NCBI GenBank assembly: GCA_029210815.1
Contig: JARGGB010000002.1
Location: forward strand, 8,450-72,449
Source of the DNA: Candidatus Brevefilum sp.
GTDB taxonomy: Bacteria > Chloroflexota > Anaerolineae > Anaerolineales > Anaerolineaceae
DNA length: 64,000 nucleotides
Direction: 5' to 3'
The position numbers and the translations under genes were made by a program. Positions 4,413-50,487 of this stretch are shown here, one piece after another. Positions within the stretch are counted from its first letter, which is position 1. The number at the start of each line of letters is the position of its first letter. The notes beneath the pieces were generated by a model. It made no database searches, was not told where the DNA came from, and saw nothing but the letters and a program-made list of their open reading frames with translations.

Positions 4413-6932
4413 TTATAACAAACTGGAAGGATCAACCTCAACCATCCAATCTGGCAATTGCCGATCGCGCAAAAAGCTGGCGGGATCATCACCCCGCAGT
4501 ACAATTTGCCAGCGGTAGCGTCCGTACAAGCGCTGGAAGAAACAGGGGGCGGGGCCAATAATGTCAACCGGATGGTTCTCCTGTGTGTTCCAGGCTTTGA
4601 GATGCTCTGCTAATTCAAAGGCTGCCTTTTCGGCTTTTTGCGAGTCATAATGGCGGTATTCCAATCGCACAAGACGTTTAAACGGCGGGTATCCCAGATC
4701 TCTGCGGTAAGCCATCTCCTTTGCGTAAAAGCCTGTAAAGTCATGATTGGCTGCTGCTTGAATTGCATAATTATCCGGTTCGTAAGTTTGGAGGATCACC
4801 TTTCCGCCAAGGGGACTGCGCCCTGCACGACCGGCAACCTGGGTTAATACCTGGAAGGTGCGCTCCGTGGCAAGGTAATCTGGCAAGTTCAAGCCCACCT
4901 CAGCCAGGATCACCCCGACCAATGTGACCAAAGGCAGGTCGAGTCCCTTCGTCAGCATCTGGGTGCCAACCAGGATATCTGCCTTGTGGTCGGAAAAAGC
5001 CTTCAAAATACGTTCATGGGCACCTTTCGCCCGCGTGGTTTCTGTGTCCCAGCGAAGTGTTGTGACCCCCGGGAAATTTTGATTAACCAATTGCTCAACC
5101 TTTTCAGTGCCGGTTCCCAATTGCTTGATTTGGTTCCCGCCGCAAACCGGGCATGCCTTCGGCATATTGCGTTGATAACCGCATGTATGACACACCAATC
5201 CTCCCCGAGAGCGATGATAAGTAAGCGGTTTATCATCACGGGGGCACTTGATCACATAACCGCAATCACGGCAAAAAACATAAGTCGCCGTGCCAAGCCG
5301 GTTGAGGAAAAGTATTGCCTGCTGACCTGTGTCCAACACCTTCTTAATGCCTGATTGCAAATCCTTACTGAAGATGCTGCGGTTACCTTTGCGCAGTTCC
5401 TGGCGCATGTCCACTATGGAAACTTCGGGTAATCCCAGGTCCGCAGTTGAACCCTCTCCCGGATGAAGGGGGATCTCGATGCCCAATCGCCTGGCATGTT
5501 GAGCGATTGCCTCGCGATGGGCTAAAATGCGTTTGGGCAGCTCAAGATAGGTCCAACTGCCGTTGATCGCCCGATAATACTGTGTGACCTGTGGCGTGGC
5601 TGAACCAAGAAGAACCATAGCCCCTGAAAGACGTGCGTAAGCCCTTGCAGTTTTAACGCCTCGATAAAAAGGAGGTCGATCCGACTGGTCATAAGATTCG
5701 TGATGGCATTCATCGACCACAATTAATCCCAGGTCTTCCATGGGCATAAACAAGGCACTGCGGGGACCAACGATTACCGAAAGTTCACCATTCCTTGCCC
5801 TGCGCCAGGTGTCATAACGCTCACCTTCGGATAGTTGTGAATGCATGACGCCAACCTGATCAGGAAAACGTGATAAAAACCTGTTGACCGTTTGGGGGGT
5901 TAATGATATTTCAGGCACCAGGACAATGGCTCTCTTGCCCATTGCCAGTGTTTCCTTAACAGCACGAAGGTATATTTCTGTTTTTCCAGAACCTGTCACA
6001 CCGTGCAGCAAATAGGGCTTGCCTGGGGGCTCATCATGCCTGACACTTTCTAAACCCTCTTGAATCGTCTCCCAGACCCTTTGTTGATCCCCCGTCAGGT
6101 CAGGCGGCGCTGCCAGGATGTAACTGGCATCCTCAAGGGGATCGCGCCAAACCTGAACTTCAACAAACCTTAACAAATCCAATTCTTCTAAGGCTGTTAG
6201 ATCGTAATTCTTTGCCCCAATCCGATCGTAAATTTGACGTGGCTCAACCAGGCCAGGTTCTTGCGCCAGCATCTTCAAAATGTTCGTGCGCCGTTCGTGG
6301 ACATCATGTACCCTGCTCAATGAGATATCCAGGTCTTCCAATTTTGAAGGCTCGATTGCAAGACAAACCTTACGCACATGTTTTGCCCTAACACGCGGTT
6401 CTGGCAAAATTGAATGGGTATCCACAATACCCTGACGTGCCAGTTTGCGCAGTATACCGCGCCATTCGACATGCCGCAGTGATGCCTCCATCTGGCGCCC
6501 GCGCAGATCACCGCGTTTTTTCAATAAGTTAATGATCCGTTTTTCAAGGGGTGAAAAGTCAACAGCGGTGGTATCAATTTCATCATTAAGATGAACCAGG
6601 GTGTCTGTATACTGGCTTAACCCTGACGGGAGCATCAGGTTGATCATTTCTCCCAAAGAAGACAGGGTTTCGTGTGCCATCCACTCTGCCAGGGACATCA
6701 AGCTGGGTGTCAGCGCCGGTTTCTCGTCCACGACCTCTTCCACAGGACGGGTCTCAGCGACATCCGGCGTCTCAATAAAACTTAAAACCAAGCCCTGCAC
6801 ACGTTGTTTGCCGAAGGGTACGATCACCAGGGATCCAGGCTGGACTGCTCCCACCAATTCTGGCGGCAAGTGATAATGAAAACTATCAGAAATCTGAGGG
6901 AGATTGATCGCAACTTCTACATAAACATGCAT
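4413..6932 (-). CDS. priA: Primosomal protein N' (replication restart helicase)
   Basis: GVTGSGKTEIY, IVVDECH, Cys-rich region CRDC..CPRD..CHTC..CPVC, LVGTQMLTKGLD, QVAGRAGR. Confidence 0.97.
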   Translation of the reverse strand: MHVYVEVAINLPQISDSFHYHLPPELVGAVQPGSLVIVPFGKQRVQGLVLSFIETPDVAETRPVEEVVDEKPALTPSLMSLAEWMAHETLSSLGEMINLMLPSGLSQYTDTLVHLNDEIDTTAVDFSPLEKRIINLLKKRGDLRGRQMEASLRHVEWRGILRKLARQGIVDTHSILPEPRVRAKHVRKVCLAIEPSKLEDLDISLSRVHDVHERRTNILKMLAQEPGLVEPRQIYDRIGAKNYDLTALEELDLLRFVEVQVWRDPLEDASYILAAPPDLTGDQQRVWETIQEGLESVRHDEPPGKPYLLHGVTGSGKTEIYLRAVKETLAMGKRAIVLVPEISLTPQTVNRFLSRFPDQVGVMHSQLSEGERYDTWRRARNGELSVIVGPRSALFMPMEDLGLIVVDECHHESYDQSDRPPFYRGVKTARAYARLSGAMVLLGSATPQVTQYYRAINGSWTYLELPKRILAHREAIAQHARRLGIEIPLHPGEGSTADLGLPEVSIVDMRQELRKGNRSIFSKDLQSGIKKVLDTGQQAILFLNRLGTATYVFCRDCGYVIKCPRDDKPLTYHRSRGGLVCHTCGYQRNMPKACPVCGGNQIKQLGTGTEKVEQLVNQNFPGVTTLRWDTETTRAKGAHERILKAFSDHKADILVGTQMLTKGLDLPLVTLVGVILAEVGLNLPDYLATERTFQVLTQVAGRAGRSPLGGKVILQTYEPDNYAIQAAANHDFTGFYAKEMAYRRDLGYPPFKRLVRLEYRHYDSQKAEKAAFELAEHLKAWNTQENHPVDIIGPAPCFFQRLYGRYRWQIVLRGDDPASFLRDRQLPDWMVEVDPSSLL

Positions 6933-15668: not shown

Positions 15669-16802
15669 ATGAAAGTTAACGTTAAACAACAACAGCTTGC
15701 ACACTGCGTCAGCATGGTTTCCAGGGCAGTATCACCACGGAGCACTTTGCCCGTTCTCTCAAATATCCTGGTCAAAACAGATAATGGACGTTTGCGCTTA
15801 TCTGCGACCAACCTTGAACTGGGAATAACCTGCTGGATTGGTGCCCGCATTGAAGGCGAAGGTGCGATCACTGTGCCTGCTCGAACTTTCACAGATTTGG
15901 TCAGCAACCTGCCCAGTGATCAGGTGATATTTACGCTGGACAACAGCACCCAGACTCTGAATGTGCGCTGCGGCACCTCTGAGACCAACATCAAGGGCAT
16001 TGATGCAGAAGAATTTCCGCCTATTCCCGAACCAAACCTGGAAGAAGGGGTTCCTCTCAACGTCGTCAACTTCAAGGAAATGGTGCAGCAGGTAGCTTTT
16101 GCAGCCTCAACGGATGAAGCCCGCCCAGTATTGACGGGCGTGCTGTTAAAAATTGATGGTGATCGTATCACAATGGCTGCTACCGACGGTTTCCGCATTT
16201 CAATTCGTGAAGACGAAATTCCCAACGCAGTATCCCGCCCAATTGAAGCCATCATACCCGCCAGGGCGCTGGTTGAACTCGCTCGCATTATCGGTGGGGG
16301 CGATGAGACATTGATCATGACCTTCCCCCCTGACAGGGGTCAGGTCATCTTCCACATGGATGATTTGGAACTGGCATCGCAATTGATTGACGGCAGCTTC
16401 CCGGATTTTCGCGCAATCATCCCGCAAAGCTTCAAAACACACACGCTCCTCTCCACCAGCGGCTTGTTAAAAGCTTGTAAACAGGCGGAAATCATCGCTC
16501 GCGATAGCACAAATGTCGCCCGTCTTAACATCATCCCTGAAACTGATGAAACCAAACCCGGTACACTTGAAATTTCTGCACAATCAGAGCAAACAGGAAC
16601 TTCCGAGGTTCTGGTAGATGCCTCTGTGGACGGCGTCCCATTATTGGTGGCGTTTAACGTTCGTTTCTTGCGAGAAGTGCTTGAAGTGATCAAATCGGAC
16701 AACGTCTGGCTTGAGACCAATGCAGCAAATACGCCTGGCTTAATCCATCCACAGGGAGATGAGCATTTTAAACACATCATTATGCCCATGCACATTGGCT
16801 AA
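15669..16802 (+). CDS. dnaN: DNA polymerase III beta sliding clamp
   Basis: STLPVLSNIL, SATNLE, ARPVLTGV, ATDGFR, FPDFRAIIP, IIMPM. Confidence 0.97.
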   Translation: MKVNVKQQQLAHCVSMVSRAVSPRSTLPVLSNILVKTDNGRLRLSATNLELGITCWIGARIEGEGAITVPARTFTDLVSNLPSDQVIFTLDNSTQTLNVRCGTSETNIKGIDAEEFPPIPEPNLEEGVPLNVVNFKEMVQQVAFAASTDEARPVLTGVLLKIDGDRITMAATDGFRISIREDEIPNAVSRPIEAIIPARALVELARIIGGGDETLIMTFPPDRGQVIFHMDDLELASQLIDGSFPDFRAIIPQSFKTHTLLSTSGLLKACKQAEIIARDSTNVARLNIIPETDETKPGTLEISAQSEQTGTSEVLVDASVDGVPLLVAFNVRFLREVLEVIKSDNVWLETNAANTPGLIHPQGDEHFKHIIMPMHIG

Positions 16803-25799: not shown

Positions 25800-26726
25800 T
25801 TAATCCAATTTTTCAATGATCGCTTCTGTTAATTCCTGCGTCTTCACAGAATCCCAGGCTGTTGTTTGGGGTTGTTCCCGACTTTCAACACAATCAAAAA
25901 AATGCGAAATCTGAGCCTCAAAACCTCTCCCTGCAAGGGTGGATTGCCACGCAGAAGAATAAGGCTCAACCCATTGTTTTTGCTCAGGACCCTGTGTAAT
26001 GGAAAGCTTAGAAAAGGCTTCGATTTCTACCGTTGTCTGATGCCCGTAAAGCGAATAATATTCCCGCCAGGCGCCTGCCTGCAAATTGGTTTCAATGATC
26101 CCAATGCCGCCTGAATCCAATCTTATCGCTACAGCAGCAGACAGAAGTTTTCCACCCATTGACTCATGAACTAAGGATTCCACCTCGCCTTCGCCGCAGT
26201 AAAACCGAAGCAAGTCGATTTGGTGAATGGTGTCCTCATATAATTGTCGTCTGCGGTCTTTGAAGGATGGGTTCTGCCTGAATTTTCTAAAAACCCCCAT
26301 GCTTACTGGGTTTTCGCCCCACAGCGTTTTTGCCCGGATGTGAAGCGGTGCATAGCGGCGGTTAAAACCAACCATCAATATTCGTTCATGTTCGTCTGCC
26401 AGTTCAGCCAATATTCTTGTCTCATTGATATCCATGGTGGCAGGTTTTTCGACGAAAACATCCACGCCATTTTGAAGCAGCAGCTTAACAATCTCAAAAT
26501 GGCTGTGGGACGATGTTAGAACAAAGGCTGCCTGGGGTTGATCATCAATTAACTGGTCAAGATTGTTCGTTCCGTAATCAATGCGGTACTTTTGCTGCGT
26601 GTCAGCTAAAGGCTCGGGTGACCGGTTGTACAGCATCAGCTCGAAGTCTTTTTGTGTGCCTAAAATCGGCATGTAGGCTTTCTGACAAATACTTCCCAAG
26701 CCGATTACAGCGATTTTCTTTTTCAT
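25800..26726 (-). CDS. Gfo/Idh/MocA family oxidoreductase
   Basis: IGLGSI, VFVEKP, VGFNRRY, DTIHQID. Confidence 0.92.
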   Translation of the reverse strand: MKKKIAVIGLGSICQKAYMPILGTQKDFELMLYNRSPEPLADTQQKYRIDYGTNNLDQLIDDQPQAAFVLTSSHSHFEIVKLLLQNGVDVFVEKPATMDINETRILAELADEHERILMVGFNRRYAPLHIRAKTLWGENPVSMGVFRKFRQNPSFKDRRRQLYEDTIHQIDLLRFYCGEGEVESLVHESMGGKLLSAAVAIRLDSGGIGIIETNLQAGAWREYYSLYGHQTTVEIEAFSKLSITQGPEQKQWVEPYSSAWQSTLAGRGFEAQISHFFDCVESREQPQTTAWDSVKTQELTEAIIEKLD

Positions 26727-26833
26727 AGAAACTTGACCTTTCTCTCTCGTGATGATTTCTTCCCCTTTTTAATGATACTCAGATCATGGCAGGATCTGTT
26801 CTTGATTTCTTGCCATATTTTCTTCTTAACAAA

Positions 26834-27373
26834 TTAAGACACGCTGTCAAATTCCTGACGATAGTAAACGACCCCTTCTACGGCTGTCATAATTTTGGGT
26901 TTGAGTATCTTAATCATAAAAGCCTCCTCTGGAACATCGTCATAGGCACATCGAATACCAAAAGTGTTGGCTGGTTTAAATCCAAACCGGGGATAATAAG
27001 CGGAATCTCCCAAGACAACCACAAAGGGGTATCCTGCCAATGCCGCCCGGGTCAAACCTTCAACGCATAAAGCAGTGCCAATCCCCTGTTTCTGGTATTC
27101 CGGCAAAACAGCCAGGGGCGCAAGCCCCAAGCCCTCGATTGACCAACCCTGATTTTGGATCAATCGAGCGGGTGTAAAAAGAACATGGCCAAGGACGTTA
27201 TCGCCGATTTTAGCTACCAATGAAATAAAAACAGGACAATTTTCACGCAATCTATCGACGACATCTGCTTCACCATCACCATGAAATGCCAATCGATGAA
27301 CCAAACGGATGCCTTGCACATCCTGTTCAGTTTCTTCCTGAATATTAAATTTCAATTGCTTATCAAGGTTCAT
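26834..27373 (-). CDS. GNAT N-acetyltransferase (YhbS-like)
   Basis: LAPLAVLPEYQKQGIG, VLGDSAYYPRFGF; ATG 27373 preferred. Confidence 0.9.
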   Translation of the reverse strand: MNLDKQLKFNIQEETEQDVQGIRLVHRLAFHGDGEADVVDRLRENCPVFISLVAKIGDNVLGHVLFTPARLIQNQGWSIEGLGLAPLAVLPEYQKQGIGTALCVEGLTRAALAGYPFVVVLGDSAYYPRFGFKPANTFGIRCAYDDVPEEAFMIKILKPKIMTAVEGVVYYRQEFDSVS

Positions 27374-27433
27374 GTAAGAAATTATAGCCTGATACAATAA
27401 ATTATCGGCAACATCACACAAAAGACTTTATGC

Positions 27434-27841
27434 TTAATTCGCTGATACTAAAGCCTCAGTTGAAATTTCAAATTCTGGTGGGTTTTCAAGATGTTTTTTA
27501 ACCGCACAAAGCTGTGCAGATCGAATTAAAGACTCTCTGTATCTTTCAGGGAATGTCTCCGGCACCTGGATGATAAGCTCAACCTTGTCCACCATGTGCG
27601 TGAAGGGAGAACTGTGAACCCGCTGAATAATTTGAATATTATTCGTAGGCAATCCTCTCTGTTTGCAGAAACCTAAAACATAGATCCCGGCACAGGTACC
27701 CATCGATGCCAGGAATAAAGAAAATGGCGTTGGCGCTTCTCCCCTGCCGCCGCCAGCGGGAGGTTGATCTGTTTTTATTGTATAGGGTCCGAAATGAGCG
27801 TCAACTCGTGCGCCACCGGGAAAATCAATCAGCATTTCCAT
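27434..27841 (-). CDS. OsmC family protein
   Basis: TDQP...PTPFSLFLASMGTC..C, CAVKKHL. Confidence 0.88.
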   Translation of the reverse strand: MEMLIDFPGGARVDAHFGPYTIKTDQPPAGGGRGEAPTPFSLFLASMGTCAGIYVLGFCKQRGLPTNNIQIIQRVHSSPFTHMVDKVELIIQVPETFPERYRESLIRSAQLCAVKKHLENPPEFEISTEALVSAN

Positions 27842-28348
27842 AAATAAAATCCTCTTTCCAATTTTGAATGTCTATTTATTGATGCAAAAAGAACCATTCA
27901 GGTTACAGTTTATTGGAAAGAGAGAGTCTTAATTAATTTATTCACATAGTTTATTTAAAGAATCTTTAATTAGTCGTAGTCGTAGGGTGTGTGGAAAAGT
28001 GGATAAAGGGAAAATAACTCGGGTGCTGAACATTTTTTACAGGGATATACTGGGAAGCATTGGTCAGCTTTGGAAAATTTTGGTTTACACCAGACGGTTT
28101 TTTATCAACAAATGCTTGTTGATATCCTGATAAATAAGGACCACTTTTTTGAACAAGTTTTATGAAGGGGAAAAAGTACTTCTTTTTATCCAGAAATTCT
28201 CCAGAATTCGGTGGAAATTTCACACAAAAATAGGGCAAGTTATCCACATTTCGTATAAGTTATCCACAGTTTTTGATGTTTTATCCACAGTTTTGTTGAT
28301 AAATGAGGTGTTTTTGAAGAAACAGACTGGTTGTGAAAAAAACAGAAA
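27842..28348. other. Probable chromosomal replication origin (oriC)
   Basis: TTWTNCACA boxes at 27938, 27990 (reverse), 28240, 28260 and 28281; 1-mismatch boxes at about 27998, 28102 and 28294; AT-rich 27928-27970; TAG/TCG trio run 27971-27985. Confidence 0.82.
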
Positions 28349-29356
28349 TTAGATCCCGTAAGCGTTTTCCCAGGATTCGATCGCAATTTCGAGGCTGTCT
28401 AAATAGGCATCTAAAGCCGTGCATTTTTCAGCGGCGCGATCCTGTGTCAGTTCAAGGGATGCAAGACAATTTTCCCATGTCTCTCTGTTAGGCGTGTCCC
28501 CATCCAAAGCGAGCTGAATGTCCAGCCATGTTCGAAGCAGCGGCCAAAGCGCTTGACCGGGTGAATCGCTGTTCAGCAATGCCTGAATCCCAGAGACGTA
28601 ATAGCTGTGTCTGCTGGGTTTTAGGTGAACAGGCGCATCCACCTTTTTTGAGATATAGCTCAGATCTTCTTCGAATGCTTTTGCCCAATCCTTTAGATAC
28701 TCATTTTGTTCTTCGTTATAACCTAATAAGCCGTAAATCCCGGCCAGCACCTTTGGAACGCCGAGGGTTTCTACACGATCTTTCAGGGACATCAAGAATC
28801 GTCGTGTGGTTAGCGGAGGTCCGATCAAGCCTGCAACGCTGTTTGCCCCCAAGGATAAAATATTAAGGCAATGATCCAGCCATGATTCGTGCGATTCGGG
28901 AGGGGCTTGCAATAAAGAAAACCAGTTTTCACGTGCGGCAGAGGAGAATTTCCTGACTCTTGCCAGCACATTGTCCGAACGGTGAAATTCAGCGTTGACA
29001 CTGGATTGGATAAATTCGAGCCAATGTTCATTATCATGCAGGATGATGTTGTAATGGGTAAGCGGATAGCCCATTAATGGATCCTTGCGGAAGGCTCGGT
29101 GGTCGGTATATGCTTCACGGACCTTATGATAAATATCCAGTGAGATATCTGGCGTTACGACAGCGCATTCTCGTGTTGTTGGTGCCTGGTATTTGTGAAC
29201 CAGAACCAAATCGATATCCGTCGTTCCTCCCAGCAGCGGATCTTCTTCAACCAATGACCCGACCAGGTAAGCAGCGTATATATCAGGCTCGCTTCGCAGA
29301 CGGGCAGTGACGGTCTGCTGGGCAAACTTATGGAGTAAGTCTCGTGTGATTCGCAT
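28349..29356 (-). CDS. Hypothetical protein with Pol-beta-type nucleotidyltransferase motif
   Basis: YLVGS-x12-TDIDL plus a later SLDIY; helical C-terminal half. Confidence 0.65.
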   Translation of the reverse strand: MRITRDLLHKFAQQTVTARLRSEPDIYAAYLVGSLVEEDPLLGGTTDIDLVLVHKYQAPTTRECAVVTPDISLDIYHKVREAYTDHRAFRKDPLMGYPLTHYNIILHDNEHWLEFIQSSVNAEFHRSDNVLARVRKFSSAARENWFSLLQAPPESHESWLDHCLNILSLGANSVAGLIGPPLTTRRFLMSLKDRVETLGVPKVLAGIYGLLGYNEEQNEYLKDWAKAFEEDLSYISKKVDAPVHLKPSRHSYYVSGIQALLNSDSPGQALWPLLRTWLDIQLALDGDTPNRETWENCLASLELTQDRAAEKCTALDAYLDSLEIAIESWENAYGI

Positions 29357-29371
29357 GATCTTTCCCTTTAT

Positions 29372-30007
29372 CTATAGATCAATTGGCAAGCTTTCCTGGA
29401 ATGGTGACAATTTCAGTGTTTGTCGGATCCGTTGTTCAATTTGTTCCAGGTGTTCGGAATAGCGTACGTAGTCCAGGTTGTTGGTATTGATCGTCAAAAC
29501 AGTTTGCCCCGGATAGCTTTTAAACCGTGTCTCATAGGTTTGATTAAGGGCAGCAATATAATTGACGTCCATCTTGCGCTCATAGGGGCGATCGCGGTGG
29601 GCAATTCTTTGCATCAGGACGTCAGTATCCGCCTGTAAGTAAACGATCAGGTTTGGTTTGATGATTTTCTCAGCTAGAGCCTCATGTACCTGGATATAGG
29701 TTTCTAATTCATCACCGGAAAGGTTTGCTTCAGCGAAAAGGCGGTCTTTTTCAAATGTGTAATCAGAAATTAACCAGGGGTTGTTCTTGAGGGATTCCGG
29801 TACGCCTCTGCGTTGTTGATGATATCGACTGAGCAAGAAAAAGATCTGAGTTTGAAAGGCAAAACGCTCACGATCTCCATAAAAATCACTGAGAAATGGA
29901 TTTTCTTCAAAAATTTCCAATAGCAGTTCAGCGTTGAAGGATGTTTGTAAGAGACGAGCCAGGGTGGTTTTCCCCACACCAATAACGCCCTCAATGGCAA
30001 TGTACAT
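29372..30007 (-). CDS. Deoxynucleoside kinase (dCK/dGK family)
   Basis: IAIEGVIGVGKTTL, ENPFL, FQTQIFFL, RIAHRDRPYE. Confidence 0.93.
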   Translation of the reverse strand: MYIAIEGVIGVGKTTLARLLQTSFNAELLLEIFEENPFLSDFYGDRERFAFQTQIFFLLSRYHQQRRGVPESLKNNPWLISDYTFEKDRLFAEANLSGDELETYIQVHEALAEKIIKPNLIVYLQADTDVLMQRIAHRDRPYERKMDVNYIAALNQTYETRFKSYPGQTVLTINTNNLDYVRYSEHLEQIEQRIRQTLKLSPFQESLPIDL

Positions 30008-30215: not shown

Positions 30216-30722
30216 ATGACGGATGAGAAGAAAAAAGGAATGAGCTCAAACCAGCTCAAATTCATCATCAGCGGGGGTTTATTTCTGATTGCAGTGGTCA
30301 TTCTGATCATCAGTGCAACGCGGGGAACAGCAGAATTTTTTATGACCGTTGAGGAATTGCAGCAGTCTGAAAATGAACTGCAGGGTCAAAATTTGCGTGT
30401 GTCCGGCGCTGTATTAGGCGAGAGCATCTATTTTGACACTCAAACTGGGCTTCTCCATTTTACAATAGCCCATATCCCGGCGGATGAAGACCTGGCTAAA
30501 GAAGAAGGCGAGTTGAGCAAGGTCTTACACCAGGCTGTTAACGACCCGGATAATTCCCGGTTAGACGTGATTTATGAAGGGGCTAAACCGGACATGCTCA
30601 GGCATGAAAGTCAGGCGATTCTGACCGGCCAATTAAATTCGGAAGGTGTTTTTGTCGCTGAGGAATTATTGCTGAAATGCCCTTCAAAATATGAAGAAGC
30701 CTTACCAGAACAGGCGGAGTAG
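30216..30722 (+). CDS. ccmE: Cytochrome c maturation heme chaperone, CxxxY variant
   Basis: N-terminal TM, LRVSG, KPDM, LLKCPSKY. Confidence 0.88.
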   Translation: MTDEKKKGMSSNQLKFIISGGLFLIAVVILIISATRGTAEFFMTVEELQQSENELQGQNLRVSGAVLGESIYFDTQTGLLHFTIAHIPADEDLAKEEGELSKVLHQAVNDPDNSRLDVIYEGAKPDMLRHESQAILTGQLNSEGVFVAEELLLKCPSKYEEALPEQAE

Positions 30723-30728
30723 AACATC

Positions 30729-32744
30729 GTGATATCTTCATTTGGTTACATGACCCTTGCCCTGGCATTTTTATTGTCATTCTATGGTTTGGTCATCCTA
30801 ATTTTTGGTCTTATCCAAGAATCACCGGCTTTTTTTGAGTCTGCTCGTCGGGCATTGGTATTGATTTTCCCATTGTCAACAGCTGGCATCCTTGTGCTGG
30901 TGTTTTTGTTATTAACGGACCGCTTTGATGTCGCTTATGTCTACAGCGTCAGCAGCAGGGAAATGCCGGCTTATTTGAAATTAACAGCCCTTTGGGGAGG
31001 GCAGGAAGGCTCGCTTCTCTTTTGGAGCTGGTTATTGAGCGGGTTTTCTTTGGGATTTTCCAGCCGAAAAATCCGGAAGGAAAGCGACCTGTTCCCCTGG
31101 GCGATGCTGGTGGCTTTTATTTTATTAATTTTCTTCCTTGGCTTGAACGTGTTCTTAGCCACGCCCTTTGAACGTTTCTGGCATTTTACCGACGGCGGCA
31201 GGGTCTTATCTGTTTTCCAACCTCGAAACGCCTGGACGTTGACCCCAGGAGATGGACAGGGCTTGAACCCGCTCTTACGCCATCCTGGCATGATCTGGCA
31301 TCCCCCTGCGCTCTACCTGGGCTTTGTGGGTTTCCTTATTCCATTTGGCCTGGCAGCAGCGACCCTGATCACAAAGCGTCGGGATGGACGATGGATTGAA
31401 CTTTCACGCACATGGATCCTAATTGCCTGGGTATTTCTATCCCTGGGTCTGGTGCTAGGTATGCGTTGGGCTTATGACGTTCTGGGCTGGGGCGGCTATT
31501 GGGGCTGGGATCCTGTTGAAATTGCAGCCTTAATGCCCTGGCTGAGCGCAACAGCTTTGATTCACACCGCGTTACTCCAGAAAAAAGCAAATGGTTTTCA
31601 GCGTTGGAATTTAAGCCTGATCATCCTCACTTTCGGTCTGGTCATATTTGGCACTTTTATCACCCGATCAGGGGTCTTATCCTCTGTGCATACCTTCGCT
31701 GGCAGTAATATTGGTCCGGCAATGTTTGTTATTATGGGGATTACAAGCATCGGCGGCTTAGGCTTGCTGATCTATCGCTGGCGTGACTTTGGACCTTCCC
31801 AGGAAATTGAGTTTGGCTTTTCGCGAGAAGTTTTAACCCTGTTTTCAAACCTGGTTTTATTGAGCATCTTGATGGTCTGTTTTCTTGGTGTCGTTTACCC
31901 GATTTTTTCGGATCTGCTCACCGGTACCCAGGTCACTGTTGGCCCTGCCTGGTATGAACGTATTACCGGTCCCTTATTCACCTTATTGTTGTCGCTGATG
32001 GGGCTTTGTCCGCTTGCCGCATGGGGTTTGACTCGACTTAACAAAATTCGCCAGGGACTTACAATTTTGTTGCCCCTGTCCCTTTTAGTCCCACTATTAA
32101 TCTGGCTTTTGGGTGGTGTTAACAATTTTTATGCACTGGCTGCCTTATGGTTGGCGGGATTGGCGGCTATTGTCATTTCCTGGGAATATATCAATGCTGC
32201 CCGAAAGGGTTTAGCAAGGCCAGATGGGAGACTCCCCGGGGCTTTGTGGGTGCCTTTCCGGCGAAATCATCGGCGCTACGGCGGAATGCTGGTTCATCTG
32301 GGGATCGTCCTGATGAGCCTGGGGATTATAGGCTTGGAAGGCTTACAGCAAGAAACACAGCTCAGGCTTGAGCGAGGCGAATCAGCATCCATCGGCGCTT
32401 ACCAGTACACCTTTGAGGGCATTGAACGCTTCACAGAAGCAGAAACTACCACAACCCAGGCTGTTTTGACGATTCTATACCAGGGGCAGCCAGAGGGAGC
32501 GCTGTATCCCAGCCGTGAGGTTTATTCCAATTTGGGCATGGCAGTTACCATACCCGGCGTGAAAAGCAACCTTTCTTTGGATCATTATGCGATCCTGGTG
32601 GACTGGCAGCCAGAATTGCCAGACGAGGCAACCTTCAGGATTTTTGTTAATCCCCTGGTGAACTGGTTGTGGATAGGCTCTGGCGTGTTGACCTTAGGGA
32701 CCATCATCGCGGTTTTACCAAAGTCAAGGAATGGTAGGCTTTAA
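30729..32744 (+). CDS. ccmF: Cytochrome c heme lyase subunit
   Basis: WGGQEGSLLFW, LNPLL..HPP, WGGYWGWDPVE, SVHTF, HLG, NPLVNWLW. Confidence 0.96.
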   Translation: MISSFGYMTLALAFLLSFYGLVILIFGLIQESPAFFESARRALVLIFPLSTAGILVLVFLLLTDRFDVAYVYSVSSREMPAYLKLTALWGGQEGSLLFWSWLLSGFSLGFSSRKIRKESDLFPWAMLVAFILLIFFLGLNVFLATPFERFWHFTDGGRVLSVFQPRNAWTLTPGDGQGLNPLLRHPGMIWHPPALYLGFVGFLIPFGLAAATLITKRRDGRWIELSRTWILIAWVFLSLGLVLGMRWAYDVLGWGGYWGWDPVEIAALMPWLSATALIHTALLQKKANGFQRWNLSLIILTFGLVIFGTFITRSGVLSSVHTFAGSNIGPAMFVIMGITSIGGLGLLIYRWRDFGPSQEIEFGFSREVLTLFSNLVLLSILMVCFLGVVYPIFSDLLTGTQVTVGPAWYERITGPLFTLLLSLMGLCPLAAWGLTRLNKIRQGLTILLPLSLLVPLLIWLLGGVNNFYALAALWLAGLAAIVISWEYINAARKGLARPDGRLPGALWVPFRRNHRRYGGMLVHLGIVLMSLGIIGLEGLQQETQLRLERGESASIGAYQYTFEGIERFTEAETTTTQAVLTILYQGQPEGALYPSREVYSNLGMAVTIPGVKSNLSLDHYAILVDWQPELPDEATFRIFVNPLVNWLWIGSGVLTLGTIIAVLPKSRNGRL

Positions 32745-32782
32745 TTCGTCGGAATTATTCGATTGTATTACAGTCGGCCTAA

Positions 32783-32810
32783 CCCTCACGTCGTGCCTCC
32801 TGAGGGCAGG
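32783..32810 (-). repeat. Isolated copy of the REP internal core
   Basis: Minus strand CCTGCCCTCAGGAGGCACGACGTGAGGG, 26/28 identical to the core inside the REP at about 56386. Confidence 0.7.
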
Positions 32811-32876
32811 GGCTTCACTCCTTTTTGTAAGAAATTCAAATGAAGAAAATTTTTGTTATCTCTATAAACTGCAGGC

Positions 32877-33971
32877 TTAATCAAGCTGACATGTTTTTCC
32901 AGGGATAGATATGTCAATTGTTTCTGTCAATTTTTGTGGGAGCGGTTGGGCTAAATGTGCGACTGTTGCGATCCCTGCTTGTAAAATTGAAAAACCGGTA
33001 TCGCTGTTGATGTAGCTTATGGTATCCGAAGTTCGATGATAGTTGTAATTTCGATCTGATTTTCCGCAAGTTTCATCCGGATGGTAGAAGGAATTCTCCA
33101 TCATTAAAACCCCTGGCACACCTTTTCTCCAAAATGGATCGTGATCCGAGAAAGGGTAAGCATTTTCGTCATCGAGAAAATCATAGGTCAGCCTTAAATC
33201 GTAAGCCTCGATCACCGATCCGATCAGATTGCCAATTTCCTGTGATTCTGGCAAAGTCCCGGCGTGCACCTCAAAACAGCCATCGCTATCTCCATCGAAG
33301 GCAAACATATCCATGTTCACCACACCAACTATGTTTGGCAGCCAATCGGCATAATCCTCAACAAAGGATGTGCTGCCGATGCGCGATTTTTCCTCACCGC
33401 TAAACCATATTAAGTCGATTGTTCGTCCAAATCGATAATACTGAAGAATTGATGCTGCTTCTAATAATCCTGCTGTGCCGCTGGCATTGTCATCGGCACC
33501 CGGTGCAATTAAATACTCGTTGCCAGATGTGCTGTCCATGTGGGCGACAAACAAAACGTGTTCATTTTTCAGCTTGGAGTCATCCCCCTGAAAGCTTAAT
33601 ATGATATTCTTCCAATTTCTTTTGGGATAGCGGTCACCAAACGGGAAGTTGTAATTGTGAATTTGGAAATCCTGCCCTTCAACGAAGCCCAATCGAAGGA
33701 GTTCATCAATAAGATAATCAAAAGCACTTGGCTTTGCATCCGGTTCAAACATCACCAGGCTGCTGCGGGTTATTATCTTTTCCATACCGTCCGCAGTTTG
33801 AATGGGGTCCGCCCCAGACAATGCCCTGATCCACCCCATCCAACGGTGCGGATTGGCTTCCGAGAGCATTTCAGCAACCTGGGGATTATAAACACTGCTG
33901 TTGGCAAATGGGGGTAAAAATATTTGAAAAAGGATCAGGCTGATTGCCATGAAGGAGTTCAGGTAATTCAT
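32877..33971 (-). CDS. M28 family Zn aminopeptidase, secreted
   Basis: AHMDS, GADDNASG, FSGEE, NMDM, SDH, YH..SD. Confidence 0.9.
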   Translation of the reverse strand: MNYLNSFMAISLILFQIFLPPFANSSVYNPQVAEMLSEANPHRWMGWIRALSGADPIQTADGMEKIITRSSLVMFEPDAKPSAFDYLIDELLRLGFVEGQDFQIHNYNFPFGDRYPKRNWKNIILSFQGDDSKLKNEHVLFVAHMDSTSGNEYLIAPGADDNASGTAGLLEAASILQYYRFGRTIDLIWFSGEEKSRIGSTSFVEDYADWLPNIVGVVNMDMFAFDGDSDGCFEVHAGTLPESQEIGNLIGSVIEAYDLRLTYDFLDDENAYPFSDHDPFWRKGVPGVLMMENSFYHPDETCGKSDRNYNYHRTSDTISYINSDTGFSILQAGIATVAHLAQPLPQKLTETIDISIPGKTCQLD

Positions 33972-34119
33972 TGATTTTACGATAAATAAAAAGGGTTTTC
34001 AGAAATCATGTTAATTTGATTATACTCCTGCGAAATGATCACCTGGTTTTCTTGAAATCAGCTTGCTTATGGTATGCTTATTTTGGATATTTTTACCTTG
34101 GTGATAAAGGTGATCTTTT

Positions 34120-34590
34120 ATGAAACAGCACAAACTAATCCAAATATTTGTATTAAGTTTATTTGTTTGCCTATCCTTGTTCTTGCCCGTGGAGGCAGTC
34201 CGGGGACAAACAGATATCCCTACGGATGATGATGTCAACCGGATAGCAAAGCAGTTGTATTGCCCGGTGTGTGAAAATGTCCCACTGGATGAGTGTACAA
34301 CTGAAGCCTGTCAACAGTGGCGGAATCTGATCCGCCAGCAGTTGTCTGATGGATGGACGGAAGATGAAATTTTAGCCTATTTTGTTGCCCAATTTGGCGA
34401 TAAAGTCCTGGGGGAACCGCCCAGGCGCGGGCTGAATTGGGTTTTATATCTAATTCCTCCCCTTGTGATACTGACCGGTATCATCTTGTTGATTAATCGG
34501 CTCAGGCGTCCAAAGGTGGATTCTACAAATGTTGAAGAAAGTGACCCCTATCTTTTACAGATTGAGCAAGATTTGAATGAGCGTGAGTGA
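34120..34590 (+). CDS. ccmH: Cytochrome c biogenesis protein CcmH
   Basis: LYCPVCENVPL, YFVAQFG..VLGEP, LYLIP. Confidence 0.9.
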   Translation: MKQHKLIQIFVLSLFVCLSLFLPVEAVRGQTDIPTDDDVNRIAKQLYCPVCENVPLDECTTEACQQWRNLIRQQLSDGWTEDEILAYFVAQFGDKVLGEPPRRGLNWVLYLIPPLVILTGIILLINRLRRPKVDSTNVEESDPYLLQIEQDLNERE

Positions 34591-34592
34591 AT

Positions 34593-35174
34593 ATGCGTAA
34601 AGAAATGCCGGAGAAAACCTCCGAGAACCCAAGAACCAAAAAATTTTGGATCATTGTAAGTATTCTTAGCCTGGTTATTCTATTAGTTGTCTTTGGTCTG
34701 CGCCTTTTTTCTGACGGTAAGTCAATGCTTGAAATGGGTAAAGCGCCTGAAGATTTCAGCTTAATGACATTCTCAGGTGAAAGAATCCAAATGGGTGATT
34801 TAAGAGGAAAAATTGTCCTGGTCAATTTTTGGGCATCCTGGTGTGTGACATGTGACGAGGAAGCAGTCGTGCTTGAGCAAGCCTGGCAGGAACTCCAGGA
34901 GAAGGCACCTGGTGAAACCTTTTTCCTGGGCATCGCTTATATGGATACCGAACCGGCAGCACGCTCCTTTCTGGAGGAATACAGCGTGAGCTATCCCAAT
35001 GGCCCGGACCTGCGCGGTGAGATTTCAGATTTATACCAGGTTCAGGGGGTGCCGGAAACGTTTATTTTAGACCAGGAGGGGATTTTGCGCAGTATTAAAT
35101 ATGGTCCCTTTCTTTCAGTTGAAGAGATATTGAGCTTGATCAACCCTTTGCTCACAGGGCAGGGAGGGGAATAG
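34593..35174 (+). CDS. TlpA/CcmG thiol-disulfide oxidoreductase
   Basis: N-terminal TM, VNFWASWCVTC, GVPETF. Confidence 0.9.
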   Translation: MRKEMPEKTSENPRTKKFWIIVSILSLVILLVVFGLRLFSDGKSMLEMGKAPEDFSLMTFSGERIQMGDLRGKIVLVNFWASWCVTCDEEAVVLEQAWQELQEKAPGETFFLGIAYMDTEPAARSFLEEYSVSYPNGPDLRGEISDLYQVQGVPETFILDQEGILRSIKYGPFLSVEEILSLINPLLTGQGGE

Positions 35175-42464: not shown

Positions 42465-43190
42465 TCAATCAATATCATAGGTGAAGTTTGCTGTCACCTG
42501 TATGGTTAAAGTGCCGCTTGAAACGGGCACCTCACCAGCACCCATAGCCGCTTCTTCGACGGCAAAATCATAACGGGGCATCATGCCGCCATTCTGATTG
42601 ATGCCAATGCTGCGGATTTTTCCTAATTTGACGCCTGCGGCATCAGCAATGGCTTCTGCCTGTGATTTTGCATCCTCAATTGCCAGTTTTCGGGCTTCCT
42701 CTACCGCTGCTTCTCGATCTTCAACGTCGAAGCTGATCCCGTGAATGGTGTTTGCCCCCTCAGCGACCATGGTCGAGAGCACTTCACCCAGGGAGTCCAG
42801 GTCTCTCACGACGACTGCGACTGTGTTTTCAACAACATAGCTCGTTGTCGGTTCTTCCTCTCCCTCAAAAGGTCGAGGTTCTTGCTGCTGGTAAATGTTA
42901 AAGTTTCGGGTCTGGATATCCTTTTGCTCAACGCCCATCCCAATCAACTTTTGGATGATATTCTCAGCAATTTCAGAATTCTCATGAAATGCTTCGATGA
43001 TTTCGGGGGATTGAGAGCGAACGCCTATGTTGACGTGGGCGATATCCGGTTTTATTTTGACCTTTCCAGTACCCGTAGCGTTGATAGTTCGAAGTGTATC
43101 ATTACTTGCATTAGTGACGGTACCTGCACAACCGGTAATGAAAGCGGCAATTGTAACAAAAAGTAAAAGGGTTAAGAGTGTTTTCTTCAT
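42465..43190 (-). CDS. SIMPL (DUF541) domain lipoprotein, copy 2
   Basis: Lipobox ITGC; ATGTGKV..PDIA, EARKLAIEDAK.QA..IA. Confidence 0.88.
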   Translation of the reverse strand: MKKTLLTLLLFVTIAAFITGCAGTVTNASNDTLRTINATGTGKVKIKPDIAHVNIGVRSQSPEIIEAFHENSEIAENIIQKLIGMGVEQKDIQTRNFNIYQQQEPRPFEGEEEPTTSYVVENTVAVVVRDLDSLGEVLSTMVAEGANTIHGISFDVEDREAAVEEARKLAIEDAKSQAEAIADAAGVKLGKIRSIGINQNGGMMPRYDFAVEEAAMGAGEVPVSSGTLTIQVTANFTYDID

Positions 43191-43283
43191 AAATATCCTC
43201 CTTACAAATATTTATTAATCGTTGGTTTTTGCGAGAGGCTGAGTGATCAGCCTCTCGCGTTGTCAGGAGTGGGGGATAATTTT

Positions 43284-43988
43284 CTACTTGATCGAGTAGG
43301 TCAGGCTGGCTTCCATGGTAATGGACAGGGTGCCAGCAGCGATCGGGACAGCAGCTTCTGAATATGCGCCGCCTTTAGCATCGTAATAGATGGTGGGCGT
43401 ACTGCCGCTGTAAACGCTGATGCTGATTATTTCACCAAGCTCAACGCCTGATTCTTCAGCGATATCCTGTGCCTTTGCCTTGGCATCTTCAATCGCCAGC
43501 TTGCGAGCTTCCGCAACAGCAGCTTCACGATCTTCAACATCGAAGTTGATACCGTAAATATTGTTTGCACCTGCTTCGACCACGGCTGTGAGCACTGCAC
43601 CCAGGCTGGTCAGATCGCGAACGGTTACATTGACGGTGTTTTCTACCACAAAATAACGTCCTTCAACCTGCCCCGTCATGGGGTCATAGCGATCTGAGGG
43701 ATAAACATTGAAGTTCGATGTTTGGATATCGTCTTCTTCAATGCCCAATTCTTGCAAAGCCCGTGAAATCCTGCTAGCCTGGGCTGTATTTGTGTCCAGT
43801 GCATCCGTCACGTTTTCTGCTTCTGATCGCACACCGATATTGATGGCAGCGATGTCCGGTACAACAGTCACCCTGCCGGTGCCGCTGACGCCCATCGTTC
43901 GTTCTTTTTCCGGGGCAGTGGGGCTGCAAGCAGCCAGCAGTCCGATGACAATCATGCTGATCATGATAAGGCTAAATTTTTTATTCAT
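43284..43988 (-). CDS. SIMPL (DUF541) domain lipoprotein, copy 1
   Basis: Lipobox LAAC; SGTGRV..PDIA, EARKLAIEDAKAKA. Confidence 0.88.
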   Translation of the reverse strand: MNKKFSLIMISMIVIGLLAACSPTAPEKERTMGVSGTGRVTVVPDIAAINIGVRSEAENVTDALDTNTAQASRISRALQELGIEEDDIQTSNFNVYPSDRYDPMTGQVEGRYFVVENTVNVTVRDLTSLGAVLTAVVEAGANNIYGINFDVEDREAAVAEARKLAIEDAKAKAQDIAEESGVELGEIISISVYSGSTPTIYYDAKGGAYSEAAVPIAAGTLSITMEASLTYSIK

Positions 43989-47854: not shown

Positions 47855-48048
47855 GGTGTTAAAATTTTAGCATATCCCTGATTTGATTACCATATTGACC
47901 TTGTGAGAGATGATATTGCTGGGAAGGCAGGATTTGTGTTGATAAATATACAGACATCATTTATTATTGGATTGCGAATGTTCTCATATCTAATATTTCA
48001 ACAATTTTAATATGAAAAAATCAGGTTTTCTGGTTGATGGAGGGTGTG

Positions 48049-50487
48049 ATGCAATTTGGATATTTTGATGATTCTAATCGTGAGTACGTGATCAGCCAGC
48101 CTGATACGCCGCTGCCGTGGATCAATTACCTGGGTGCTGAGGATTATTTTGGTTTGATCTCAAATACAGGGGGCGGTTACTCCTTTTACCAGGATGCTCG
48201 ATTACGCCGGCTTACTAGGTATCGCTATAACAACGTCCCGACGGATATGGGAGGACGCTATCTTTATTTACGCGATAATGCAGAAGGTCAGTTCTGGTCA
48301 CCAACCTGGATGCCCACGCAAAACCAATTAGAAGATTATTCCTGCCGGCATGGTATGGGATATACCAAAATCGGGTCGACCTACAATGGCATCCGGGCTG
48401 ACCTGCGGTATTTTGTTCCTCCTGGTGAGACCCTGGAAATCTGGGATGTGACGATTAAGAATCTGACCGATGAGGTCAGGCAGCTTTCGGCGTTTTCAAG
48501 TGTTGAATTCTGCCTGTGGGATGCCAATGACGATGCCACGAACTTCCAGCGCAATTTGAACATCGGTGAACTTGAGGTACAGGGTTCGGTCATTTATCAT
48601 AAAACCGAATACCGGGAGAGGCGGAATCATTTTGCGTATTTTGCTTGTTCAGAGCCTTTGGCTGGTTTTGAAACACAGCGGGAAGCCTTTTTGGGACCCT
48701 ATCGGGGATACCAGAATCCACAGGCGGTTGAAAGGGACATGTCCAATAACTCACTCACGGTGGGCTGGGCGCCAGTTGGTGTTCATCACTTACGCTTTTC
48801 CCTGGCACCTGGCGAAACCAGGCGAGTGATTTTCCTTTTAGGCTATTTTGAAAACCCGATTGACCAAAAATTCTCACCCCCCGGATCGCGAAACATCAAT
48901 AAAGCAGGGGTTGAACCGATCATTGAGAAGTATCTAAATCCACAAGCAGTTGACCAGGCTTTTGAGGATTTGAAGCAATACTGGCAGGCAAACTTAAATG
49001 TGCTGCAGGTAGCGACGCCTGATCAACGTGTCAATCGGATGGTCAATATCTGGAATGCCTATCAATGTATGGTGACCTTTAACCTGTCTCGATCTGCATC
49101 GTATTTTGAATCCGGCATTGGGCGCGGCATGGGATTCAGGGATTCCAACCAGGATTTGCTTGGATTTGTGCTGATGGTGCCTGAAAGGGCACGACAGCGA
49201 ATTTTGGACCTGGCGGGGACACAGCTAGAAAGCGGCGGTGCTTATCATCAATATCAACCCCTCACCAAGCGCGGCAATGACGCGGTCGGGGGGAACTTCA
49301 ATGATGATCCAGCCTGGTTGGTTTTGGGAACGGCAGCCTACCTGAAAGAAACTGCGGATTGTGGTATTTTAGATGAGGCGGTGCCTTTTGACAACAAACC
49401 CGGGTCGGAAGCCAGTTTGTTTGAGCATCTTGAGCGTAGCATTCAATACACCCTGGATAATATCGGTCCGCACGGTTTGCCCTTGATCGGTCGAGCTGAT
49501 TGGAATGATTGTTTGAATTTGAACACTTTCTCCGAGAAGCCGGGAGAATCCTTCCAGACCACGACCTCTCGTGATGGAAAGGTGGCAGAATCGGTTGTGG
49601 TTGCAGCCCTGTTTATCATAGCTGCCAATGAAATGCGGGCGATCAGCGACCATTTTGGATTTGGGGATAAAGCTGCTTTCTATAAAAACGCTGCCGAAAA
49701 AATGGCTGGGGTGACTCGAAAATTTGGTTGGGATGGGGATTGGTTCCTGCGAGCCTACGACCATTTTGGTGATGTGATTGGCTCTAAGCAATGTGAAGAT
49801 GGCAAAATCTTTATTGAACCCCAGGGGCTGTGTGCCATGGCAGGGATCGGGCTTGAGGAAGGTATGGTGAAAAAGGCGCTTGAAGCCGTACAAACCCATC
49901 TGGCAACCGTGCACGGCATCGTTCTTTTAGATCCGCCCTATCACGAGTATCATCTTCAATTGGGTGAGATTTCTTCCTATCCCCCAGGCTATAAGGAAAA
50001 TGGCAGTGTGTTTTGTCACACCAACCCCTGGATCATGATTGCAGAATCAATCATGGGGAATGGTGATCGCGCGATGGATTATTACCTGCGGATCAATCCT
50101 TCCAATCGTGAGGCAATCAGCGAAGTCCATCGCTCCGAGCCCTATGTGTATGCCCAAACCATTGCAGGTAAAGCCGCTGATCGTTTTGGCGAAGCGAAAA
50201 ACTCATGGCTGACAGGGACGGCAGCCTGGAATTATGTTGCTATCACCCAATGGATTTTGGGTATTCGACCGGATTATGATGGTTTGAGGATTGAACCGGT
50301 TGTACCTAAAGATTGGAATGGGTTCAAAGTCAGGCGGCAATTCCGCGGTACCCTTTATGACATCGATGTCGTTCGTGAGGGAACCGGAAATAAACTCAGC
50401 TTGTTCGTCAACGGGAAAAAGATTGAAGGAACCCTTGTGGAGGCATTGGAAGCGACCCAGGTTTCGGTTAAAGCTGTGATTGTTTAA
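48049..50487 (+). CDS. GH94 cellobiose phosphorylase-like
   Basis: GYFDD..REYVI..P.TPLPWINYLG, RRLTRYRYNNVP, RDSNQD, RADWND, PGYKEN, NSWLTGTA. Confidence 0.92.
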   Translation: MQFGYFDDSNREYVISQPDTPLPWINYLGAEDYFGLISNTGGGYSFYQDARLRRLTRYRYNNVPTDMGGRYLYLRDNAEGQFWSPTWMPTQNQLEDYSCRHGMGYTKIGSTYNGIRADLRYFVPPGETLEIWDVTIKNLTDEVRQLSAFSSVEFCLWDANDDATNFQRNLNIGELEVQGSVIYHKTEYRERRNHFAYFACSEPLAGFETQREAFLGPYRGYQNPQAVERDMSNNSLTVGWAPVGVHHLRFSLAPGETRRVIFLLGYFENPIDQKFSPPGSRNINKAGVEPIIEKYLNPQAVDQAFEDLKQYWQANLNVLQVATPDQRVNRMVNIWNAYQCMVTFNLSRSASYFESGIGRGMGFRDSNQDLLGFVLMVPERARQRILDLAGTQLESGGAYHQYQPLTKRGNDAVGGNFNDDPAWLVLGTAAYLKETADCGILDEAVPFDNKPGSEASLFEHLERSIQYTLDNIGPHGLPLIGRADWNDCLNLNTFSEKPGESFQTTTSRDGKVAESVVVAALFIIAANEMRAISDHFGFGDKAAFYKNAAEKMAGVTRKFGWDGDWFLRAYDHFGDVIGSKQCEDGKIFIEPQGLCAMAGIGLEEGMVKKALEAVQTHLATVHGIVLLDPPYHEYHLQLGEISSYPPGYKENGSVFCHTNPWIMIAESIMGNGDRAMDYYLRINPSNREAISEVHRSEPYVYAQTIAGKAADRFGEAKNSWLTGTAAWNYVAITQWILGIRPDYDGLRIEPVVPKDWNGFKVRRQFRGTLYDIDVVREGTGNKLSLFVNGKKIEGTLVEALEATQVSVKAVIV

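Follow-up and report, generated by a model that had tools for sequence, protein, structure and literature searches.

A probable chromosomal replication origin with a candidate A/C-centred DnaA-trio code in an uncultured Brevefilum-like Anaerolineaceae bacterium

The window analysed here is a 64-kb stretch of DNA from an uncultured Brevefilum-like Anaerolineaceae bacterium (Chloroflexota), in which we investigated a 507-bp intergenic spacer between the genes at 27434-27841 and 28349-29356. A first-pass annotation had placed a probable functional origin at 27928-28302, inside this spacer, between an osmC-like and an NTase-like gene. The assignment of the left gene held, while that of the right gene goes no further than an hG[GS]x12DxD motif. 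The neighbouring and replication-related genes were the following:

27434-27841, minus strand: OsmC-like gene (Pfam PF02566)
28349-29356, minus strand: uncharacterised 335-aa gene, adjoining the spacer
29372-30007, minus strand: deoxynucleoside kinase (dNK) gene, following the 335-aa gene
15669-16802, plus strand: dnaN (TIGR00663, 290 bits), 11 kb from the candidate origin
4413-6932, minus strand: priA, 21 kb from the candidate origin

The 335-aa protein had more than 1000 homologues, nearly all of this same length, and no match in Pfam, NCBIfam, or PDB sequences; likewise, its AlphaFold model (pLDDT 72) had no Foldseek match with E <0.3. Its invariant G33-S34...D47-x-D49 motif is the single feature that hints at a nucleotidyltransferase. 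Pfam scans of the 30 larger open reading frames recovered dnaN and priA and no DnaA, and tblastn with an approximate E. coli DnaA probe found no dnaA match in the window or in any of the related loci described below. The dnaN gene was preceded by an opposite-strand methyltransferase gene, not by dnaA, and in one related locus (L021) dnaN was located 3.3 kb from the module. Within the spacer, promoter and terminator scans returned nothing above chance and no sigma-70-like promoter, and no RNA family was identified with Rfam in 26500-29500. Further out, past the 335-aa and dNK genes, the right replichore carried a cytochrome c maturation cluster (CcmE, CcmF, CcmH, thioredoxin-like) at 30216-35174, ~2 kb away from the origin, and an opposite-strand M28 peptidase gene broke this cluster. 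The window also encoded two adjacent SIMPL/DUF541 paralogues (42465-43988) and two paralogous GH94 genes of the cellobiose/chitobiose phosphorylase type (48034-50487 and 53930-56353).

On the plus strand, the AT-rich tract (27928-27970) was followed by TAG TCG TAG TCG TAG (27971-27985), by GGTG (27986-27989), and by two tandem DnaA boxes (27990-28006), with a triple of perfect boxes 230 bp beyond the tandem boxes; the first-pass coordinates of all five elements proved exact to the base. The elements recognised in the spacer were:

27928-27970: AT-rich DNA unwinding element (DUE), overlapping the region upstream of the OsmC-like gene (start codon at 27841)
27938-27946, plus strand: DUE-distal DnaA box TTATTCACA, 1 mismatch, inverted relative to the tandem boxes
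27968-27985, plus strand: six DnaA-trio-like triplets, 5'-AAT TAG TCG TAG TCG TAG-3', their register and number conserved in 46 unique origins
27986-27989: GC-rich 4-bp spacer GGTG (GGGC or GGGG in relatives)
27990-27998, minus strand: trio-proximal DnaA box TTTTCCACA (plus strand reads TGTGGAAAA), 1 mismatch, R1-type
27998-28006, minus strand: second co-oriented box TTATCCACT (plus strand (A)GTGGATAA, with GTGGATAA at 27999-28006), 1 mismatch
28102-28125: palindromic weak-box pair TTATCAACA-aatgct-TGTTGATAT, homologous to the TCCACA-n6-TGTGGA pair of relatives
28186-28218, plus strand: weak-box group with TTATCCAGA (28186-28194) and TTCTCCAGA (28197-28205), and ATTTCCACC on the opposite strand (28210-28218)
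28240-28289, plus strand: three perfect TTATCCACA with a 20-21 bp period, the predicted distal high-affinity DnaA anchor
28294-28302, minus strand: outermost box TTATCAACA, 1 mismatch, inverted relative to the triple

A scan for TTATCCACA with up to one mismatch returned 31 matches in the 64 kb, compared to 16.2 ± 4.2 in shuffled sequences, and 9 of these 31 fell within the 365 bp from 27938 to 28302, where the density outside the cluster predicts ~0.13. Such a cluster above chance is expected of an oriC, and the same scan detected no second box cluster in the window. The three copies at 28240, 28260, and 28281 were the only perfect ones in the 64 kb. The tandem boxes were offset by 8 bp, so that the second 9-mer had one base in common with the proximal box.

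The AT-rich tract reached 87.5% A+T in 40 bp, a value matched by 0.08% of the 40-bp windows in the 64 kb, and the 30-mer with the lowest predicted Tm of the intergenic spacer (27930-27959) adjoined the trios, as expected for the easily melted element of an oriC. We also considered whether the DUE-distal box might head a mirror-image basal unwinding system (BUS) on the opposite strand, and rejected this reading, since no triplet pattern followed that box.

Cumulative GC skew, a check named in the first-pass annotation, was V-shaped over the window and lowest at 27754, a point 174 bp away from the AT-rich tract; it thus showed a strand switch at the site over 64 kb. Across a span of this length, sequencing coverage around an origin would be expected to vary by less than 1%. 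To place the locus among relatives, we retrieved loci through the 335-aa protein, whose relatives were found in metagenome-assembled genomes of Anaerolineaceae and Brevefilum; a contig of GCA_032250855.1 obtained in this way was 99.7% identical to the window. One flank protein of the window led to a 14.7-kb contig of another assembly that added just 1.2 kb, and a database look-up of the other flank protein returned no record. The gene for the 335-aa protein, followed by the deoxynucleoside kinase gene, flanked the origin in 61 of 66 Anaerolineaceae loci (L002-L067), and in ~60 of the 66 no more than ~100 bp separated the stop codon of this gene from the start of the box cluster. Two loci carried extra DNA between this gene and the box cluster (~3 kb in L017 and ~0.5 kb in L028), with the origin intact.

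All 22 close relatives that could be used (clade A, the Brevefilum-like clade; ±6 kb examined) had negative skew on the flank with the gene and positive skew on the opposite flank. Across all loci, right-flank skew exceeded left-flank skew in 47 of 51 (Wilcoxon p = 3e-9), a value to be read with the caveat that left flanks share genes and their skews are not fully independent. The right flank carried osmC in only 16 loci and varied in gene content, which indicates that the sign change in skew is not a property of one conserved gene set. The DUE and the distal box were conserved even where the downstream gene was not osmC. Together with the layout and polarity discussed below, the skew minimum and the skew switch in relatives support the earlier claim of a functional origin, and we conclude that 27928-28302 is probably the chromosomal oriC, or at least its unwinding half, of this uncultured bacterium.

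The related origins could be read element by element in the orientation of the loci, which corresponds to the minus strand of the window: an inverted box, three TGTGGATAA with the spacer CTTATACGAAA, the weak boxes TCTGGATAA and TGGAGAAAA, the palindromic pair TCCACA-n6-TGTGGA, ~100 variable bp, TTATCCAC(A/T)T(A/T)TCCACA, GCCC, five triplets, ATTAAAGATTCT, more AT-rich DNA, and then TGTGAATAA. Conservation was pronounced in the unwinding module, where the string TTATCCAC-(A/T)T(A/T)TCCACA-GCCC-five triplets-AT-rich DNA recurred in relatives: the trio-proximal box was a nearly invariant (A/T)T(A/T)TCCACA, the second tandem box was TTATCCAC in most relatives, the DUE block beginning with ATTAAAGATTCT was conserved, and the DUE-distal box was kept as (A)TGTGAATAA, ~27 nt past the last trio, in most clade-A origins, whatever gene came next. 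The palindromic pair was TCAACA...TGTTGA in the window and in L002 and TCCACA...TGTGGA in most relatives, with the same change in both arms. The weak-box group at 28186-28218 corresponded to the conserved TCTGGATAA and TGGAGAAAA elements of our alignment A2.

The distal triple, including its CTTATACGAAA spacer, was nearly invariant across clade A. This 11-bp spacer between distal boxes (28249-28259, read on the minus strand; A2 columns 46-56, distal boxes 2-3) stayed almost constant among genomes whose flanking protein was merely 50-60% identical, which may reflect an additional binding site or a tight structural constraint. The distances between the triple and the tandem boxes (28006-28281 in the window) took the values 261, 272-273, 280-287, 292-296, and 303-306 in 46 related origins, forming a ladder of ~11 bp (261, 272, 283, 294, and 305). 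Steps of this size suggest that the distal triple and the unwinding module keep a constant helical phase, which would be compatible with an interaction of the kind reported for the DnaA loop at B. subtilis incC (PMC6669920).

In the published definition, a BUS begins with one or two co-oriented DnaA boxes, which are followed by a spacer of 0-16 bp that contains a GC-rich gap of ~4 bp, by a run of three or more NAN triplets, and finally by AT-rich DNA (PMC8287927; PMC8235120). Its trios occupy the strand that has its 5' end directed away from the boxes. The corresponding search program (Pelliciari et al., 2021) accepts a box with up to 2 mismatches and an optional second co-oriented box with up to 4, separated by a box gap of 0-3 bp. 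In the window, TTTTCCACA and TTATCCACT had the same orientation and one mismatch each, although their 8-bp offset lies outside the 0-3 bp gap of the program. The first triplet was separated from the proximal box by 4 bp and from the better box by 12 bp, compared to a published mode of 13, and the triplets lay on the TGTGGATAA-reading strand, 5' of the box, with AT-rich DNA following. The order AT-rich DNA, trios, GC spacer, and two co-oriented boxes, which the first-pass annotation had likened to B. subtilis, thus agrees with the published BUS, including its polarity.

The triplets themselves departed from the rule. Read 3' to 5' outward from the boxes, they were GAT GCT GAT GCT GAT TAA, and the five box-proximal ones (GAT GCT GAT GCT GAT) offered no register with three consecutive NAN, as (.A.){3,} would demand. 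Of the 46 clade-A origins, 12 passed the (NAN)x3 rule and 34 failed it, and all passed when N[A/C]N was allowed. Given this failure, and with order, spacing, and polarity in agreement, we file the module as a BUS variant: it would work like a BUS yet is not a strict member. The authors of the (NAN)x3 rule themselves suspected deviant trios without a central adenine.

The 46 distinct box-spacer-triplet cores of the Brevefilum-like clade came from the genome loci combined with a metagenome scan using the conserved triple, which yielded 30 further loci, 28 of them with the module. We wrote the triplets 3' to 5' on the strand complementary to the loci, equivalent to the plus strand of the window, and pooled the first five of each origin, with the following base counts:

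Trio position 1: G 197, A 22, T 11 (G 86%)
Trio position 2, the middle base: A 137, C 89, T 4, G 0 (A 60%, C 39%, T 2%)
Trio position 3: T 226, C 4 (T 98%)

Accordingly, the middle base was A or C in 226 of 230 triplets and G in none, and the five box-proximal triplets had the consensus 3'-G[A/C]T-5' in a fixed register. The first triplet was always GAT, the sixth was mostly TAA, and each origin contained one to three C-centred triplets (GAT 113, GCT 76, AAT 21, TCT 10, and GTT 4 among triplet types). A-type and C-type triplets swapped positions between genomes, as in GAT GAT TCT GCT GAT and GAT AAT GCT GCT GAT. This shuffling shows that the unit is 3 nt rather than 6 and that TAGTCG in the window is one arrangement among several; a reading of the array as a TAGTCG hexamer repeat was rejected on these grounds. 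At the middle position, A and C replaced one another by transversion, and G or T, which the report of mutationally easier transitions would give, were almost never seen; this indicates selection and argues in favor of an amino base being the selected feature. The more distant Anaerolineaceae (15 cores) had the same register with canonical NAN trios, such as GAT GAC GAA AAT GAT GAA, and their middle base was A in 64, C in 9, and T in 2 cases.

Bases 1 and 2 of the triplets also appeared to be coupled, with 3'-GA, GC, AA, and TC common, AC and TA seen once each, and GT four times. Such coupling would fit a dinucleotide pocket, and shared ancestry could also underlie these counts.

In B. subtilis, the same authors later showed that C, unlike G and T, is accepted in place of the central A both in vitro and in vivo, as judged by strand separation, colony growth, and marker frequency; cytosine carries the same exocyclic amino group as adenine, which Asn187 contacts (PMC10721633). 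The natural A/C pattern agrees with the rule from this mutagenesis, and the two lines of evidence converge on the earlier suggestion that TCG is a trio variant. We see about an even chance that Brevefilum-like Anaerolineaceae use a natural 3'-G-[A/C]-T-5' trio code, in which C is a regular alternative to the central A, G and T are excluded from the middle, and the third base is fixed as T. Our literature searches, incomplete in their coverage, returned no account of an origin from Anaerolineae and no case of a natural C-centred trio.

If the locus acts as we propose, DnaA would assemble on the three perfect distal boxes and on the weaker central boxes, and the co-oriented boxes at 27990-28006 would place DnaA-ATP beside the 4-bp GC spacer. 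From there, the DnaA oligomer would grow onto the plus strand, with one protomer per triplet along 3'-GAT GCT GAT GCT GAT TAA-5', so that the plus strand at 27968-27985 is the proposed single-strand binding strand. The oligomer would capture the G and the A or C of each triplet, and the AT-rich tract at 27928-27970 would open for helicase loading. The sequence elements, their conservation and register, the skew switch, and the polarity are what our analysis shows; DnaA binding, a B. subtilis-like readout of C via the amino group, a loop that joins the triple to the module, and firing in vivo are the parts of this scheme that we infer.

Clusters of DnaA boxes outside oriC occur in E. coli and B. 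subtilis, so the site might instead be a secondary DnaA-binding locus, serving to titrate or reactivate DnaA in the manner of datA or DARS, or acting as a promoter through which DnaA controls the osmC-like or 335-aa gene. The lack of a nearby dnaA in the window and loci and the overlap of the AT-rich tract with the upstream region of the osmC-like gene would both be compatible with such a role. We nevertheless consider it very improbable, given that the skew minimum of the window lies at the site and the sign change recurs in 22 of 22 close relatives, that the whole module of box, spacer, trios, and DUE is present in the correct polarity, that the DUE and distal box persist where the downstream gene is not osmC, and that the spacer contains no sigma-70-like promoter. 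It is somewhat less improbable, though still unlikely, that initiation involves a second box cluster, for example beside dnaA, that is either needed or competes, which would make the locus one component of a bipartite origin or one of a pair of origins. Bipartite origins are known from B. subtilis, H. pylori, and C. difficile, and the window and fetched loci, which are without dnaA, leave room for a dnaA-linked box cluster elsewhere. However, the high-affinity boxes, weak boxes, unwinding module, and DUE all fit within 375 bp, and the 64 kb held no other box cluster, both of which favor a single oriC at this site.

Even if the locus is oriC, TCG might not be read by DnaA: C-type triplets could be tolerated fillers, with only TAG and TAA counting, or TAGTCG could be the double-strand site of another protein. 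The array of the window is itself a 6-bp repeat, the canonical rule demands a central A, and a constraint on the complementary strand for T or G would yield the same pattern. Against this, the shuffled A-type and C-type triplets of relatives rule out a hexamer unit, a middle base that is A or C in 226 of 230 triplets and never G is not a free one, and C works in place of A in B. subtilis (PMC10721633). We therefore regard an unread TCG as rather unlikely, and favor C-centred triplets as part of the module.

For uncultured phyla, an origin is usually assigned just by counting boxes, whereas here an unwinding module could be read base by base across ~46 natural origins. These amount to an evolutionary experiment parallel to the 2023 B. 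subtilis mutagenesis, with central A and C interchangeable and G and T not, and the TCG-mixed module occurs naturally here in a form so far made only artificially, in B. subtilis. If the proposed code is true, it would be the first natural evidence for an amino-group readout of the trio, would suggest a clade-specific change in how the single-strand pocket of DnaA reads the trio, and would account for some of the 15% of genomes that yield no trios in the present BUS search. Origin-prediction software could be corrected to allow N[A/C]N, and the clade provides a natural substrate set for testing how DnaA reads single-stranded DNA. The origin could also anchor peak-to-trough growth-rate estimates for Anaerolineaceae, which are abundant in anaerobic digesters.

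Among named systems, E. coli oriC is similar in lying apart from dnaA, in having several high- and low-affinity boxes, and, by comparison with the oriC sequence, in having its DUE (13-mers) 5' of the TGTGGATAA-reading R1 box. However, it scores weakly as a BUS and has 13-mer repeats, IHF and Fis sites, and GATC clusters, none of which were seen here. Helicobacter pylori oriC2 is comparable in its natural departure from GAT in one trio (3'-GAC-5'), with DnaA-dependent unwinding beginning at the first trio; unlike the origins described here, this deviation keeps the central A, and the H. pylori origin is bipartite around dnaA. The C. difficile BUS example has a layout equal to ours.

The closest likeness in parts is the B. 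subtilis incC BUS, composed of boxes 6 and 7, a GC-rich gap, six trios, and an AT-rich 27-mer. Both systems share two co-oriented boxes, a 4-bp GC-rich gap, six triplets beginning with 3'-GAT-5', AT-rich DNA, and equal polarity, as well as a distal box cluster at a helically phased distance. In contrast to B. subtilis, the origin here does not lie in a dnaA-dnaN interval, its boxes have an 8-bp offset, the DnaD-type 5'-TnnT-3' pattern on the opposite strand is not kept, and trios 2-5 of the clade have a middle A or C rather than A alone, with a nearly invariant 5' T. In this last respect, the module resembles the engineered B. subtilis origins with A-to-C changes in trios 1-3 (Pelliciari et al., 2023; PMC10721633), which likewise place a central C in a functional context and disfavour G and T. 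Those C-trios were artificial and reduced fitness, whereas the C-centred triplets described here are natural, mixed with A-type triplets, and conserved clade-wide.
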